Positions 4,696 through 11,455 of a stretch of DNA of 64,000 bases are shown one piece after another. The translations under genes were made by a program, and so were the position numbers. The notes under the pieces were generated by a model. That model was given only the letters and a program-made list of their open reading frames with translations. It was not told where the DNA came from and did no database searches. Every line of letters begins with the position of its first letter. Within the stretch, counting starts at the first letter, position 1. The stretch is taken from NCBI RefSeq assembly GCF_058153355.1, contig NZ_CM177019.1. One strand, given 5' to 3'.

Positions 4696-6764
<2,069 letters not shown>

Positions 6765-6772
6765 ATAAAACA

Positions 6773-6801
6773 GGAGGCGAAGGTGCCTCCCGTTTTATTT
6801 T
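6773..6801 (+). terminator. Intrinsic terminator of ompR-envZ
   Basis: ggaggcgaaggtgcctcc hairpin followed by cgttttatttt, 9 nt after the envZ stop. Confidence 0.8.
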
Positions 6802-6927
6802 GTGCACTCAGTATCTACTGAATGAATACGGTTTCAGACATCGGCACCATACGAAGTAAAGTGTACTGTAAGCTGATTGCAGGCTAGCGTATCCTGATTA
6901 GTAAAAGCACACTAAAGGAATAGCTTG

Positions 6928-8211
6928 ATGCAACTTACCAACGAAGAACAAGTACAGATTGCTCGTATAAAAGAAAAAATCCCACGCATTGCCGCACTGG
7001 ATCCTGAATGTAAGTTATTCGGTTCTGAAGGTTGGAAATATCAATGGCCGAAGCCTGCCAGCGAGGCGGAAATAGCTTCCTGGGAGAAAAAACATAGCGT
7101 CACTTTGCCACGGGAATATCGAATTTTTCTTCGCTATATCGCTAATGGCGGTCCGGCACATGCCTACGGTCTTGAATCTTTAGGCGGTACAGATATTTAT
7201 GGCGATATAACAAAAGAAAGCCCTGTACCGCTTTATATGACGCAGCAGGATGTTGATGTGTTGAATGCAGGCCGTACAGAAGATGATGAAGAATATAGTT
7301 TTTTTGACGGCGCATTGACCATTCTCACCCTGGGATGTACTTATGATATTTGCCTGGTGGTGACGGGGCAGTATCGCGGAAGGTTAATGCTGACTGATGG
7401 TGATGAAGATTATCCGTTTGATTTTATATATGATAAAAATTTCCTCAACTGGTATGAACGCTGGCTGGACGATTTTATTGCTGGCATGAGTATGAAGGGT
7501 TTCGATAGAAGTTTGCCAGGAACGCAAATTCAACTGCGTGAGTGGTTTTTAACTGAGAAAATCCCGGATTTACGTAGATCCATTTTATTCTCGCTATGCC
7601 GTTTTCCACAGATAGAACCCGAAACATTTGCCCTTTGGGAACATGTTTGCCGCACAGAGAATGATAAAGAATTGTGTGAAGAGGCATTCATAAGATTACG
7701 CCAAAAAAAAGTTTCTTGTGCTGCAGATATTTTTCGACTCTATTTTACAATGCCAGATGAATTACGTGATATTGCTATTAAAGATCTCCGTTTTGCCTGT
7801 AGAGATAGTGTGGTGAATATTGAGGATTATATTCATTCACTGTTAATAATAATGCCTGAACTTGACGATGACACTCTATCCTCAGCTGTCTTTGCTGTAC
7901 GAGAAACAGAGTATAATAAATATGATACTTTTCTGCCGCTTCTCGAACGTATCACTGATGACCGTCAGCAAACATTATTGTGGGCGATGAGTAAGGCGCC
8001 TGATTTCAATGAAAGCCGAGGATTCGTTGAGTTGGTATTACCGCTTTTTGCATCATCAAAGATGGAGAATGTAAGGAAGGCTATTTTGTTGCTCATTGAA
8101 GTTAAAGATAATCGTATTCCACCATTGGTTGATGAAGCTGCAACTCGTTTCCCTGAACTGACCATTTTACGAGAAAACTACTATCTCAGGACGTGGGGAC
8201 ATAAGCCATAA
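6928..8211 (+). CDS. Hypothetical protein with N-terminal SUKH/SMI1-KNR4-like domain and C-terminal alpha-helical (HEAT-like) repeat region; first gene of the AT-rich island
   Basis: Long ORF (427 aa from the ATG; the track starts 3 nt upstream at TTG). RBS aaggaa lies 7 nt upstream of the ATG. Motif SEAEIASWEKKHSVTLPREYRIFLRYIANGG resembles the SMI1/KNR4 (SUKH-1) signature. The C-terminal part, e.g. ENVRKAILLLIEVKDNRIPPLVDEA, looks HEAT-like. Not a K-12 gene that I recognise. Confidence 0.8.
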   Translation: MQLTNEEQVQIARIKEKIPRIAALDPECKLFGSEGWKYQWPKPASEAEIASWEKKHSVTLPREYRIFLRYIANGGPAHAYGLESLGGTDIYGDITKESPVPLYMTQQDVDVLNAGRTEDDEEYSFFDGALTILTLGCTYDICLVVTGQYRGRLMLTDGDEDYPFDFIYDKNFLNWYERWLDDFIAGMSMKGFDRSLPGTQIQLREWFLTEKIPDLRRSILFSLCRFPQIEPETFALWEHVCRTENDKELCEEAFIRLRQKKVSCAADIFRLYFTMPDELRDIAIKDLRFACRDSVVNIEDYIHSLLIIMPELDDDTLSSAVFAVRETEYNKYDTFLPLLERITDDRQQTLLWAMSKAPDFNESRGFVELVLPLFASSKMENVRKAILLLIEVKDNRIPPLVDEAATRFPELTILRENYYLRTWGHKP

Positions 8212-8248
8212 ATTAATGGCTCAGAAATGATCTAACGCGGAGAGAAAT

Positions 8249-8779
8249 ATGATCAGGGAACATATTCAGCAAGCGATAAATAATAGGTTAGCATTTGATG
8301 GCCCATTCAATGTTGTTCCTGAACCTGCAAGCACTGCGTTTGATAGCCGGATCCCGACATTGAAAAACGGTGTCTGGCAGAAGGCCAGCCCTATGTTGCA
8401 GGCGCGTTTTGCACATTGTGGACGTTGGTTAAGCGCTACACATGGAAGCTGGCTAAGTATAAGTGACATGGAAACGCTTTGGCAGGAACACATAGAAGAT
8501 ACGTTTCTTGATGAAATCAAAATGAATGCTGTAGCTTCAAGTGATAATTGGGATAACCATGCCTTGGGACTATTTCGTTCTCATCGCCTGTCACTTTTTG
8601 CCGGTAGTGATTACATTTATGAAATGGTTTTTCTCCTTTGGCTAGATAGTACCGTTGAGCCAGAGGTCTGGGTTTATGACTGCAATGGGGAATCACGTTA
8701 TAAAGATCTTAATGATTACCTGAATGCATATATTAATGATGACGTAAGCGCCTGTGAGCGCTCCTGGCGAGTAGAATGA
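8249..8779 (+). CDS. Hypothetical small soluble Trp-rich protein (island gene 2)
   Basis: 176-aa ORF with GGAGAG RBS 5 nt upstream, 37 bp after gene 1. No TM segment. No family recognised with confidence; the C-terminal VWVYDCNGESRYKDLNDYLNAYIND weakly recalls SUKH-type immunity folds. Confidence 0.75.
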   Translation: MIREHIQQAINNRLAFDGPFNVVPEPASTAFDSRIPTLKNGVWQKASPMLQARFAHCGRWLSATHGSWLSISDMETLWQEHIEDTFLDEIKMNAVASSDNWDNHALGLFRSHRLSLFAGSDYIYEMVFLLWLDSTVEPEVWVYDCNGESRYKDLNDYLNAYINDDVSACERSWRVE

Positions 8780-9402
8780 ATAGCCCCCCTTGCCCCTTTG
8801 ATCCACAAACCGCACATTACCTCGGTACAGTGCAAATCCACTACACCTCAACCACCTTCAACGCTGCCGTTAAGCATTATACCTATCACATTAAAAAGCG
8901 TTTTAAAGGGTTTAAATGGGGAATTGGTACCGCTGGCTTATTGGCTATATTGCCCATGATCCCACAATGGTTGAAACCTTCTCATGACTTTAAACTCAAC
9001 GCAATCAGTACGTTAATTCTTCTATTAATGTTGCCACTCCTCTTATCAATGTTCCTGTTAATCAGCAGAAGAATTAACGATTTTAAGTCAAAAACAAAGC
9101 AAGTTACTTTTACGAAACCCGTGCGTTATGCGTTTTATTTCGAGGGGATTGTTTTTTATGAATCTCATCAGCAGGGCATACTTCGCTGGGAAGATTTTTA
9201 TAGCATTGACTATGAAGAAGATTATTTGTGGCTTTTTCTGCATTTACCGAAGAGTTTTCCCAGAGAAGCGACGAAAGCGTTTTGCGATATTTTCATTCCC
9301 GCCAGCGCGATAAAAGCGCAGCCTGAACTGGATACGTTTTTTCGTGAAACACGCCACTATCTGGATTATCTGTTTGTCCCGTTTAATTCTGACAGAAAAT
9401 AA
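8776..9402 (+). CDS. Hypothetical inner-membrane protein (2 predicted TM helices) with C-terminal soluble domain (island gene 3)
   Basis: 208-aa ORF whose ATG overlaps the gene 2 stop (ATGA). Hydrophobic stretches WGIGTAGLLAILPMIPQWL (aa 48-66) and AISTLILLLMLPLLLSMFLLI (aa 76-96). The C-terminal ~110 aa are possibly YcxB-like/bacterial PH-like (unverified). Confidence 0.75.
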   Translation: MNSPPCPFDPQTAHYLGTVQIHYTSTTFNAAVKHYTYHIKKRFKGFKWGIGTAGLLAILPMIPQWLKPSHDFKLNAISTLILLLMLPLLLSMFLLISRRINDFKSKTKQVTFTKPVRYAFYFEGIVFYESHQQGILRWEDFYSIDYEEDYLWLFLHLPKSFPREATKAFCDIFIPASAIKAQPELDTFFRETRHYLDYLFVPFNSDRK

Positions 9403-9403
9403 A

Positions 9404-9437
9404 AAATCCCCCGTATCTGGTGAAACGGGGGATTTCG
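9404..9437. terminator. Intrinsic terminator shared by island gene 3 (+) and pck (-)
   Basis: aaaaaatcccccgt...acgggggatttcg hairpin with an A-run on one side giving a T-run on the minus strand; sits between the gene 3 stop (9402) and the pck stop (9455). Confidence 0.75.
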
Positions 9438-9454
9438 TCGCTTAACTTATCGGA

Positions 9455-11077
9455 TTACAGTTTTGGACCAGCCGCTACCAGCGCGGCACCCGCAGGGGTG
9501 TCGGTGTATTTATCGAAGTTGTCGATAAACAGTTTCGCCAGAGTTTCGGCTTTTTCCTGCCACTGTTCCGGAGAAGCGTAGGTGTTACGCGGATCGAGGA
9601 TCTTAGTGTCTACGCCCGGCAGTTCAGTCGGGATCGCCAGGTTAAACATCGGCAGAGTGAAGGTTTCTGCGTTATCCAGCGAACCGTTGAGGATAGCGTC
9701 GATAATGGCGCGGGTATCTTTAATGGAGATACGTTTGCCAGTACCGTTCCAGCCGGTGTTAACCAGATATGCCTGCGCACCCGCCGCTTGCATACGTTTC
9801 ACCAGCACTTCTGCGTACTGAGTTGGGTGCAGCGACAGGAACGCCGCGCCGAAGCAAGCGGAGAAGGTTGGCGTCGGTTCGGTGATGCCACGTTCAGTAC
9901 CGGCCAGTTTGGCGGTGAAGCCAGAGAGGAAGTGGTACTGAGTTTGATCGGCAGTCAGGCGAGAAACCGGTGGCAGCACACCAAAGGCGTCTGCGGTCAG
10001 GAAGATAACTTTAGTTGCATGGCCCGCTTTGGAAACCGGTTTAACGATGTTATCGATGTGATAGATCGGATAAGAAACGCGGGTGTTCTCGGTTTTTGAA
10101 CCATCGTCAAAATCGATAGTGCCATCTTCACGTACGGTGACGTTTTCCAGCAGCGCATCGCGACGGATAGCGTTGTAGATTTCAGGTTCCGCTTCTTTCG
10201 ACAGCTTGATGGTTTTCGCGTAGCAGCCGCCTTCGAAGTTAAACACGCCGTCGTCATCCCAGCCGTGCTCGTCATCGCCAATCAGGCGACGTTTCGGGTC
10301 GGTGGAAAGGGTGGTTTTACCGGTGCCGGAAAGACCAAAGAACACCGCAACATCGCCTTTCTCGCCAACGTTGGCGGAGCAGTGCATAGAAGCGATGCCT
10401 TTCAGCGGCAGCAGGTAGTTCATCATTGAGAACATCCCTTTCTTCATTTCGCCGCCGTACCAGGTGCCGCCAATCAGCTGCATACGCTCGGTCAGGTTAA
10501 ACGCCACGAAGTTTTCAGAGTTCAGCCCCTGCTCTTTCCACTGGGGGTTAGTGCATTTTGCGCCGTTCATAACGATAAAGTCAGGTTTAAAACCAGCCAG
10601 CTCTTCATCGCTCGGGCGAATAAACATGTTTTTGACAAAATGCGCCTGCCAGGCCACTTCGGTGATGAAACGGACGGAAAGACGCGTGTCTGGGTTCGCA
10701 CCACAGAAAGCGTCGACAACGAACAGACGTTTACCGGAAAGCTGTTTGGTCACCAGGCCCTTCAGATGCTGCCAGGTTTCCGGAGAGAGAGGTTTGTTGT
10801 CGTTCTTACCTTTGCCTTTATCAGCCCACCAGAAGGTATCGCGAGTGGTATCGTCACGGACGATATATTTATCTTTTGGTGAGCGACCGGTGAATATACC
10901 GGTATCGACGGCAACGGCACCCAGATTAGTTAACACCCCGCGCTCATAACCTGTCAGGCTCGGATCGAGCTCTTCCTGATACAGCAGGTCGTAGCTTGGG
11001 TTGTAAACGATATCATGTACGTCACTGATACCATAAGCCTCGAGTTCTTGCGGGGTCAAACCATTGTTAACGCGCAT
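9455..11077 (-). CDS. pck: Phosphoenolpyruvate carboxykinase (ATP)
   Basis: The track ORF is 563 aa; PckA starts at the internal [30 protein letters not shown] (540 aa). Contains the kinase-1a motif GLSGTGKTT. Confidence 0.95.
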
Positions 11078-11455
11078 TTCACTGCTCCTTAGCCAATATG
11101 TATTGCCTGAATAGTAAAGTCTTTTTGGGGGTGTTAACCGCGACAAGGCTCATAGATTTACGTATCTGGAGAAATTCATATTTGACAAAAAACTCCGTGA
11201 TTCCTGTCACGAAACGGTTGCTATTATCGCAGAAATAGCATTTTAGGTGTGGAAAATGTTCTTAAAAGGTTAAATCTTGGTTTATATGGCGGGAATATTG
11301 TGAGTGGAATCGCATTCCTGAATGAAATTGATGCAAATTCAATCAGTAAAGTATCGATTCACCACGCTAACTTTTTTTGATTATTTTCTGAAAAAAGCAA
11401 AATACTACGGCCCGGATGCGATAATTAACCCACTTTTTGATTCTGGATAACTAAC

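Follow-up and report, generated by a model that had tools for sequence, protein, structure and literature searches.

A SUKH-1 protein with a HEAT-like solenoid in a toxin-less islet between envZ and pckA of Escherichia: a probable orphan immunity-type protein

Introduction

According to the survey of Zhang et al. (2012, PMC3482391), in the part consulted here, no immunity superfamily is in wider use than SUKH, and HEAT repeats also appear among the immunity types as Imm-HEAT. The same part of that survey describes polyimmunity loci and proteins, in which small toxin-less loci of two or three genes encode multi-domain immunity proteins, and reports an excess of immunity genes in Paenibacillus polymyxa (together with other soil bacilli) and in Capnocytophaga gingivalis. 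In addition, divergent SUKH orphan immunity genes occur in rAID arrays (acquired interbacterial defence loci with an associated recombinase), and their protective effect has been shown experimentally (PMC12247911). The present analysis concerns a three-gene island between envZ and pckA in a 64,000-nucleotide segment of an Escherichia chromosome (NCBI RefSeq assembly GCF_058153355.1, contig NZ_CM177019.1; the whole segment is referred to below as the window). Its first gene (gene 1) encodes a SUKH-1 domain joined to a HEAT-like alpha-solenoid and is probably an orphan immunity-type gene.

Several described systems resemble this locus in part. The SUKH-1 immunity proteins represented by Bacillus subtilis YobK (PDB 2prv) and RhsPI, which confers immunity to RhsP (PDB 8bd1), share with gene 1 the domain family, both by hidden Markov model (HMM) and by fold, as well as a cytoplasmic location and immunity-type neighbours. 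However, proteins of this type consist of a single domain of ~130-200 aa and are encoded directly after the toxin gene, whereas the 427-aa product of gene 1 carries an extra N-terminal helix and a 240-aa HEAT solenoid, and no toxin gene adjoins it or its relatives in 80 related loci. Polyimmunity loci, as far as the quoted part of Zhang et al. (PMC3482391) describes them, and the AID/rAID arrays of Bacteroidales (PMC12247911) have in common with the island a set of co-oriented immunity-type genes without a toxin, variation between strains and the frequent use of SUKH domains; polyimmunity loci also place a multi-domain protein in a locus of two or three genes, as the island does. Unlike AID/rAID arrays, the island comprises only three genes and has neither a recombinase nor repeated intergenic motifs. 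Unlike polyimmunity proteins, gene 1 has a fixed rather than a shuffled architecture, and the combinations of domains quoted in the consulted part of that survey do not include SUKH+HEAT.

HEAT-like alpha-solenoids in a toxin-immunity setting are provided by the Imm-HEAT proteins of the same source and by YibA of Escherichia coli K-12. YibA, however, lacks a SUKH domain and sits beside its Rhs, and its match to gene 1 is weak and at the level of generic repeats only (Foldseek template modelling (TM) score 0.55 normalised to YibA; E 0.037). On the eukaryotic side, yeast Knr4/Smi1 (PDB 5j1b, 6qbr) and human FBXO3 have the SUKH fold in common with gene 1 and serve as protein-interaction hubs or adaptors. 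By analogy, gene 1 presumably works by binding as well, although the eukaryotic proteins have other partners and another biology, are neither immunity proteins nor accessory genes, and lack a HEAT fusion.

Domain architecture of gene 1

The open reading frame (ORF) of gene 1 is intact. Its ATG at 6928, which is the start used by PGAP, lies 9 nt downstream of a ribosome-binding site-like AAAGGAA, and an alternative TTG at 6925 would yield 428 aa. The residue numbers in the initial annotation, which had been made from the sequence alone, fit this TTG and thus differ by one from a numbering that begins at the ATG, although the residue strings that it quoted are present. Hydropathy analysis of the product revealed neither a signal peptide nor a transmembrane segment.

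The N-terminus was initially read as carrying an SMI1/KNR4 signature, and domain searches bear this out. The signature, SEAEIASWEKKHSVTLPREYRIFLRYIANGG, occupies residues 45-75 in the 427-aa numbering. The protein has significant matches to Pfam SMI1_KNR4 (PF09346; residues 43-152, independent E-value 2.7e-6) and SUKH_6 (residues 46-169, 3.4e-5). PF09346 is also matched by 19 of 20 gene 1 homologues at E<=0.001, with a best value of 1.1e-11. An AlphaFold 2 (AF2) model built on a 20-sequence alignment, with a predicted local distance difference test score (pLDDT) of 88.3 and a predicted TM score (pTM) of 0.78, consists of a helix at residues 5-24, an alpha/beta domain at 46-184 and 13 helices at 189-423. 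When this model was compared with the PDB by Foldseek, its N-terminal part matched the Knr4 core and B. subtilis YobK, albeit weakly; against AFDB50, strong full-length matches to SMI1/KNR4 proteins were obtained (E to 1e-17, TM score 0.6-0.76). Taken together, the Pfam HMM matches and the AF2 model identify a SUKH-1 domain with the SUKH alpha/beta fold, which ends in an invariant helix, FLxWYERWLD.

The suggestion of a helical C-terminus with HEAT-like periodicity, made from strings such as ENVRKAILLLIEVKDNRIPPLVDEA, which is present, has likewise held up. The helices at 189-423 were modelled mostly with pLDDT >90, and Foldseek against the PDB related them to designed ARM proteins, the beta subunits of COPI/AP, importin-alpha, CpcE/F and E. 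coli YibA. The family profile of gene 1 matches the alphaRep (HEAT-like) proteins with an E-value of 5.8e-18 over profile positions 305-428. Pfam HEAT_2 is not matched by gene 1 of the window itself; it is matched by two of 20 homologues at E<=0.001 and by seven of 20 at E<=0.1. Based on the profile match and the AF2 model, the C-terminal region is a HEAT/ARM-like solenoid. The family Imm30 (PF15565) was considered for this region on account of the UniProt name of a C-terminal fragment of the orthologue in Escherichia albertii TW07627, and was rejected: Pfam gave no Imm30 match at E<=10 for full-length gene 1 or for residues 275-427 (the C-terminal 153), nor at E<=0.1 for any of the 20 homologues. 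The SUKH domain is clear, and the HEAT part is of an immunity-compatible type that matches no Imm family and was never found apart from this SUKH subtype.

Conservation is distributed unevenly along the protein. Nearly all invariant positions of the family fall in the N-terminal helix and the SUKH domain, including R13, I14, K17 and Y38 within residues 1-42, followed by an NGG motif, GxxRGR and the terminal FLxWYERWLD helix. Pairwise identity averages 0.46-0.47 over the N-terminal helix and SUKH domain and 0.30 over the HEAT region; for the six most distant homologues, identity to gene 1 of the window is 0.35 in the SUKH domain and 0.15 in the HEAT region.

Distribution of the SUKH+HEAT architecture

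A word-indexed search returned only 24 close clusters, from Enterobacteriaceae, Saccharibacillus, Capnocytophaga and Flavobacterium. By contrast with the initial impression that a SUKH domain fused to a repeat scaffold is unusual, a profile search of 1.84 billion representatives (clustered at 50% identity) yielded 6,544 matches, of which 496 reach E<1e-30, mostly with full-length proteins (420-480 aa), and relatives are encoded in 322 of 100,044 genomes when one genome per species is considered. Paenibacillus is the dominant genus among these genomes, and the full-length relatives in AFDB50 extend over Firmicutes, Actinobacteria, Bacteroidetes, Proteobacteria, Planctomycetes, Deinococcus and spirochaetes. 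The median length of the family is ~447 aa, and the ORFs at the scanned loci are tightly grouped at ~440-465 aa. Judged by these comparisons, SUKH+HEAT is a widespread and fixed architecture that is not peculiar to the island. Database names for the family are generic, either 'SMI1/KNR4 family' or 'HEAT repeat domain-containing'.

Longer members also exist. A distant one of 689 aa (P0027) has a multi-pass membrane region C-terminal to the SUKH-HEAT module, and others carry extra HEAT repeats; a toxin-domain fusion was seen in none of the family members examined, whether long or not.

Gene 2 and its link to Rhs toxins

The second gene of the island contributes to the interpretation of the first. 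In Pectobacterium parmentieri, a 56%-identical homologue of gene 2 begins 20 bp past a Hcp-VgrG-DcrB-PAAR-Rhs gene, and E. coli 05-3629 carries a 54%-identical homologue behind a VgrG-DcrB-Rhs gene whose C-terminal toxin is of the same type as in Pectobacterium (GHTPDVGWGG). This VgrG-DcrB-Rhs/gene 2-type pair is found in 70-72 of 5,426 complete E. coli genomes, and the 60 carriers that are listed do not overlap with the 18 genomes that have the island. Another gene 2 homologue resides in a metagenomic locus (L102), in an integrase-headed co-oriented array with Imm19, SMI1_KNR4, Imm21, Imm32 and Imm17, a layout that fits the description of rAID arrays (PMC12247911). An hhalign comparison of the SUKH domain of gene 1 with gene 2 was negative, and the two are related at the fold level only. 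The gene 2 family is a SUKH-fold immunity family without Pfam, NCBIfam or PADLOC annotation. Given this fold and the homologues behind Rhs toxins, the island looks like a toxin-less immunity cluster and not like a sensor-effector system.

As a separate observation, the Rhs C-terminal toxin domain that is paired with gene 2-type genes spans ~125 aa and contains the GHTPDVGWGG motif (loci L011, 7607-7981, and L106, 5980-6358); it has no match in NCBIfam or among PDB sequences.

Genomic neighbourhoods of gene 1 homologues

In enterobacteria, gene 1 homologues are single-gene insertions at unrelated chromosomal sites. They adjoin dkgA/yqhD in Klebsiella aerogenes and Superficieibacter, and lie between yoaA and yoaB, near genes for DUF4253, pentapeptide and DUF7716 proteins, in another E. 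coli lineage and in Superficieibacter. Genes 2 and 3 never accompany gene 1 homologues outside Escherichia in the loci examined; a 170-aa gene following the Superficieibacter homologue was tried as a gene 2 counterpart and proved unrelated.

Co-oriented arrays form a second kind of setting. In Saccharibacillus, the homologue lies within a long run of small co-oriented genes. In Capnocytophaga cynodegmi, it belongs to a 21-gene co-oriented array that also encodes a leucine-rich repeat protein and DUF7638/7639, with a weak Imm-NTF2 match directly downstream of the homologue, and this array fits the extended heterogeneous polyimmunity loci as presented in the consulted part of Zhang et al. (2012, PMC3482391). 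A DUF7638/DUF7639 protein of ~310-340 aa is encoded just upstream of the gene 1 homologue in both Capnocytophaga (Bacteroidota; L099, 7492-8511) and Saccharibacillus (Firmicutes; L010, 7026-7961), and this recurrent association across phyla may be a sign of another immunity-type family.

Copies restricted to the SUKH module are also known. On the Serratia marcescens plasmid pAM01, a SUKH-only copy of 208 aa (L100, 7001-7627) is 54% identical to residues 1-185 of gene 1, stops just past the WYERWLD helix and adjoins an IstB-like fragment and a group II intron; it looks like a truncation. Fragments of CdiA surround it, together with a polymorphic-toxin-17/Imm31 cassette and a cassette for a deaminase. 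Listeria likewise has relatives of the N-terminal module that consist of SUKH only, and these Listeria forms are the sole relatives seen in phage records.

Upstream of gene 1 homologues, the large ORFs encode LPXTG-type surface proteins, SecA, a NACHT-like NTPase, tetratricopeptide repeat proteins and similar products, and ten mid-size upstream neighbours resemble housekeeping enzymes as judged by eye. At a Paenibacillus tyrfis locus (L046, 4072-7854), a 1,260-aa protein with the P-loop GAPGQGKST, NACHT/STAND-like by eye, ends 134 bp upstream of the SUKH-HEAT gene. When neighbours within three genes on either side were clustered over 78 loci, the largest cluster comprised nine loci and was endonuclease V-like, from Paenibacillus. 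At these roughly nine loci (gene -1 in L036, L053, L058, L059, L071, L074-L076 and L078), a gene of 169-193 aa lies 14-19 bp 5' of the SUKH-HEAT gene and matches NCBIfam deoxyribonuclease V with an E-value of 1e-5, below the cut-off. This adjacency could be lineage synteny or a functional pair.

An orphan immunity-type protein and its alternatives

Gene 1 is best explained, with a probability somewhat above even, as an orphan immunity-type, toxin-neutralising cytoplasmic protein encoded in a small toxin-less polyimmunity islet. The initial annotation had linked its SUKH signature to immunity against polymorphic toxins, and this link is supported by the SUKH-1 domain and by the genomic context, from which we infer an immunity function of gene 1 itself. 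The locus has the organisation of a polyimmunity locus in two respects: tandem co-oriented genes of immunity type (gene 1 with its SUKH-1 domain, gene 2 with its SUKH fold) stand without a toxin, and the structure of the locus differs between close strains, four states of the site being found. The distribution of the gene 1 family, which in the species-level genome scan is enriched in Paenibacillus and present in Capnocytophaga, points in the same direction. So does its behaviour as an accessory gene, which includes presence/absence polymorphism, alternative alleles, a premature stop in E. albertii and faster divergence of the HEAT part. Furthermore, the HEAT-repeat protein YibA (PDB 1oyz) is encoded 20 bp downstream of rhsA in K-12.

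Under this interpretation, the products of the island would wait in the cytoplasm until a rival injects a polymorphic toxin domain, for example through a type VI secretion system (T6SS)/Rhs, contact-dependent inhibition (CDI) or similar route; stoichiometric binding would then block the toxin, and the carrier would survive toxins that it does not itself encode. Binding of toxin by gene 1 is suggested by its superfamily membership and context. The conserved SUKH core may form a generic toxin-binding cleft, and the HEAT solenoid, predicted to be held in a defined orientation to it (pTM 0.78), may add a variable surface to this cleft, by which specificity is set or broadened.

Several results weigh against an immunity function. 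When two Rhs proteins, VgrG and a fragment of CdiA served as blastp and tblastn queries, no Rhs-, CdiA- or VgrG-like sequence was detected within ~8 kb in any of the 80 gene 1-related loci; small or Gram-positive toxins (LXG, WXG-linked) were screened by eye without HMMs, so that an adjacency could be missed, and none was seen. The clustering of neighbours at the 78 loci uncovered no conserved family beyond lineage synteny, and most Paenibacillus copies lie outside obvious immunity arrays. The full-length architecture is constant across phyla, unlike the free shuffling typical of polyimmunity proteins. Every PDB fold match of the gene 1 model has E>1e-3, and the literature searched contained no description of a SUKH+HEAT protein and no experimental data for the family. 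Two further proposals were discarded on the same data. A cognate immunity protein encoded next to its toxin is not supported, since no toxin lies in the island and no Rhs, CdiA or VgrG homologue within ~8 kb in the 80 related loci, and a conserved partner gene was rejected on the neighbour clustering. Since no family member was seen beside a toxin and the architecture is fixed, three alternatives to an orphan immunity function, considered below together with one further reading, retain some probability.

Among the alternatives, the one that survives best holds that gene 1 is a bivalent polyimmunity protein, whose SUKH and HEAT parts would be two independent immunity modules that each neutralise a different toxin. 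In the consulted part of PMC3482391, SUKH domains are fused to at least eight unrelated immunity domains, typically in toxin-less loci of two or three genes, and Imm-HEAT is listed; an alternative allele of the island has a stand-alone 142-aa HEAT-like gene in position 1, YibA follows rhsA in K-12, and Listeria has relatives of the N-terminal module that consist of SUKH only. Nevertheless, SUKH and HEAT always occur together at a constant length across phyla, and the AF2 model packs them into a single unit (pTM 0.78). For the HEAT part there is no match to any Imm family, Imm30 included, nor a detectable relationship to the 142-aa HEAT gene, and the Serratia SUKH-only copy looks truncated and stands beside insertion sequence and intron debris. 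We regard two independent modules as unlikely.

It is quite unlikely, in our estimation, that the SUKH-HEAT family acts as a stand-alone, toxin-unlinked 'innate' neutraliser or sensor rather than as a cognate-type immunity protein. In such a case, injected effectors of a certain class, or proteins of phages, would be recognised by the conserved N-terminal helix and SUKH core and a rapidly evolving HEAT clamp with no need of a partner gene, which would explain why no member lies beside a toxin in 80 loci from five phyla. In Escherichia, gene 1 might then signal to, or act with, the pair formed by genes 2 and 3.

A three-gene system, for instance of the anti-phage or abortive infection type with gene 1 as sensor, gene 2 as adaptor and gene 3 as membrane effector, appears very unlikely. 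The layout is operon-like, with a start-stop overlap between genes 2 and 3; two divergent alleles keep the order of HEAT-type gene, gene 2 and gene 3, and one allele fuses the HEAT gene to gene 3. Gene 3 has a weak PycTM match (E 0.0057), and the island is rare, low in GC and placed at a variable site, where a NadS-type, toxin-antitoxin-like pair adjoins it in E. albertii. However, no PADLOC model matches gene 1 or gene 2, the PycTM match covers transmembrane segments and is near noise, and no enzymatic effector domain is present. Moreover, gene 1 homologues are never found with gene 2 or gene 3 outside Escherichia, and gene 2 homologues occupy the Rhs immunity position and Imm arrays without gene 1 or gene 3. 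The earlier argument, in which the shared operon with a membrane protein spoke for a sensor or adaptor, is not supported: gene 3 is confined to one site in Escherichia, that between envZ and pckA, and is absent beside gene 1 homologues elsewhere.

Finally, a scaffold or regulator unrelated to conflict, which like yeast Knr4/Smi1 or FBXO3 would bind an endogenous client, e.g., in envelope or stress signalling near envZ/ompR, draws on the lack of toxin neighbours in the 80 loci (which leaves a non-immunity adaptor role some room), on the conserved and integrated architecture and on the adaptor function of eukaryotic SUKH proteins, with Knr4 and FBXO3 among the fold matches, but is highly doubtful for a gene that occurs in 0.3% of E. 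coli genomes, is low in GC, is broken by a nonsense mutation in the type strain of E. albertii, has homologues inserted at unrelated chromosomal sites (dkgA, yoaA) and keeps company with immunity-type genes, its adjacency to envZ reflecting an insertion site between two terminators and not an operon link.

The island between envZ and pckA

The gene order of the window, feoA, yhgF(tex), greB, ompR, envZ, three plus-strand ORFs, pckA, yhgE, hslO, hslR, yrfG and igaA, is that of an Escherichia chromosome segment. Coordinates of the island and its components are collected in Table 1. The island named in the initial annotation is real and low in GC (0.39-0.44, compared with ~0.55 in the flanks). 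In K-12, the spacer between envZ and pck is 75 bp long, and ~44 bp of it are replaced by the insertion in the window. Genes 1 and 2 are separated by 37 bp, and genes 2 and 3 overlap by 4 bp (ATGA), so that from the sequence the cluster reads like one operon with gene 1 first. Of 5,426 complete E. coli genomes, 18 (~0.3%) carry the three-gene island, which also occurs in E. albertii.

Table 1. Positions of the island, its genes and domains, and the flanking features in the window
Feature	Position	Strand	Description
envZ	5412-6764	+
envZ terminator hairpin	6763..6800		Also kept in K-12; island starts directly 3' of the hairpin
Three-gene low-GC insertion between envZ and pckA	6796..9454		2.66 kb; junctions by comparison with K-12 and other Escherichia
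Gene 1	6928..8211	+	427-aa cytoplasmic SUKH-1 + HEAT-like protein; RefSeq WP_032185310.1 'SMI1/KNR4 family protein'
Gene 1, residues 1-42	6928..7053	+	Family-specific N-terminal helix (5-24) and linker; alignment, AF2 model
Gene 1, residues 43-185	7054..7482	+	SUKH-1 (SMI1/KNR4) alpha/beta domain; Pfam PF09346, PF14568; Knr4/YobK fold matches
Gene 1, residues 186-427	7483..8208	+	13-helix HEAT/ARM-like alpha-solenoid, fast-evolving; AF2, Foldseek, profile
Gene 2	8249..8779	+	176-aa cryptic SUKH-fold protein; homologues in immunity position downstream of T6SS PAAR-Rhs toxins
Gene 3	8776..9402	+	208-aa membrane protein; start overlaps gene 2 stop (ATGA)
GC-rich hairpin between gene 3 stop and pckA stop	9404..9435		Inverted repeat; probably a bidirectional terminator closing the island operon and pckA
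pckA	9455-11146	-	Convergent with envZ

An integrative mobile element or genomic island was considered and rejected: no integrase, tRNA target or flanking direct repeats were found at 6600-9600, and the insertion lies between two terminator hairpins. An Rfam scan of the island gave no family above noise, a promoter scan stayed at the shuffle level (8 found, 6.6 expected by shuffling), a PHROGs search returned nothing meaningful, and PADLOC-DB v2 had no model match for gene 1 or gene 2.

Gene 3 and alleles of the site

The hydropathy profile of gene 3 displays a strong transmembrane segment at residues 76-98 and a weaker one at ~47-66, followed by a soluble C-terminal domain. Its database matches are at noise level (MASE8, E 0.016; YcxB, E 1.9; PycTM in PADLOC over the transmembrane segments). 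Homologues are confined to Escherichia, Salmonella and close relatives, and within the 5,426 E. coli genomes gene 3 is present in 19, solely at the envZ-pckA site.

This site occurs in four states. The first, with genes 1, 2 and 3, is that of the 18 island-carrying E. coli genomes and of E. albertii. In the second, a 142-aa HEAT-like gene is followed by gene 2' (66% identity) and gene 3' (60% identity) (L096, 7483-9197). In the third, the 142-aa HEAT gene is fused in frame to gene 3, yielding a product of 346 aa, and gene 2 is lost (L013, 8001-9041). The fourth is the empty site of K-12. Homology of the 142-aa HEAT gene to the HEAT region of gene 1 was examined by BLAST and hhalign and rejected, both being negative; each of the two divergent alleles has a HEAT-type protein in position 1, but homology between these proteins is not detectable. 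In the E. albertii type strain NBRC 107761, the orthologue of gene 1 is 91% identical and is interrupted in frame by a stop at codon 212 (L015, 8001-9287). The same strain has an extra convergent pair between gene 3 and pckA (L015, 10950-11622), comprising a NadS-family helix-turn-helix protein (E 4e-21) and a partner of 104 aa; together they resemble a toxin-antitoxin pair.

Significance

Gene 1 is an uncharacterised and fairly ordinary member of a widespread family, while the three-gene island itself is rare, and current ideas on interbacterial conflict are not overturned by either. What the locus provides is a tractable case of orphan immunity in E. coli, with ~70 genomes that possess an Rhs toxin together with a gene 2-type gene, and a separate 18 that have only a 54%-identical orphan copy. 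This division between Rhs carriers and orphan-copy carriers predicts protection at the strain level. With gene 2, a cryptic family of SUKH immunity proteins is recognised, which is linked to a particular Rhs toxin that circulates in E. coli. The large SUKH+HEAT family, for its part, is generically annotated and consistently unlinked to toxins; identification of its target would show how SUKH domains extend their specificity.

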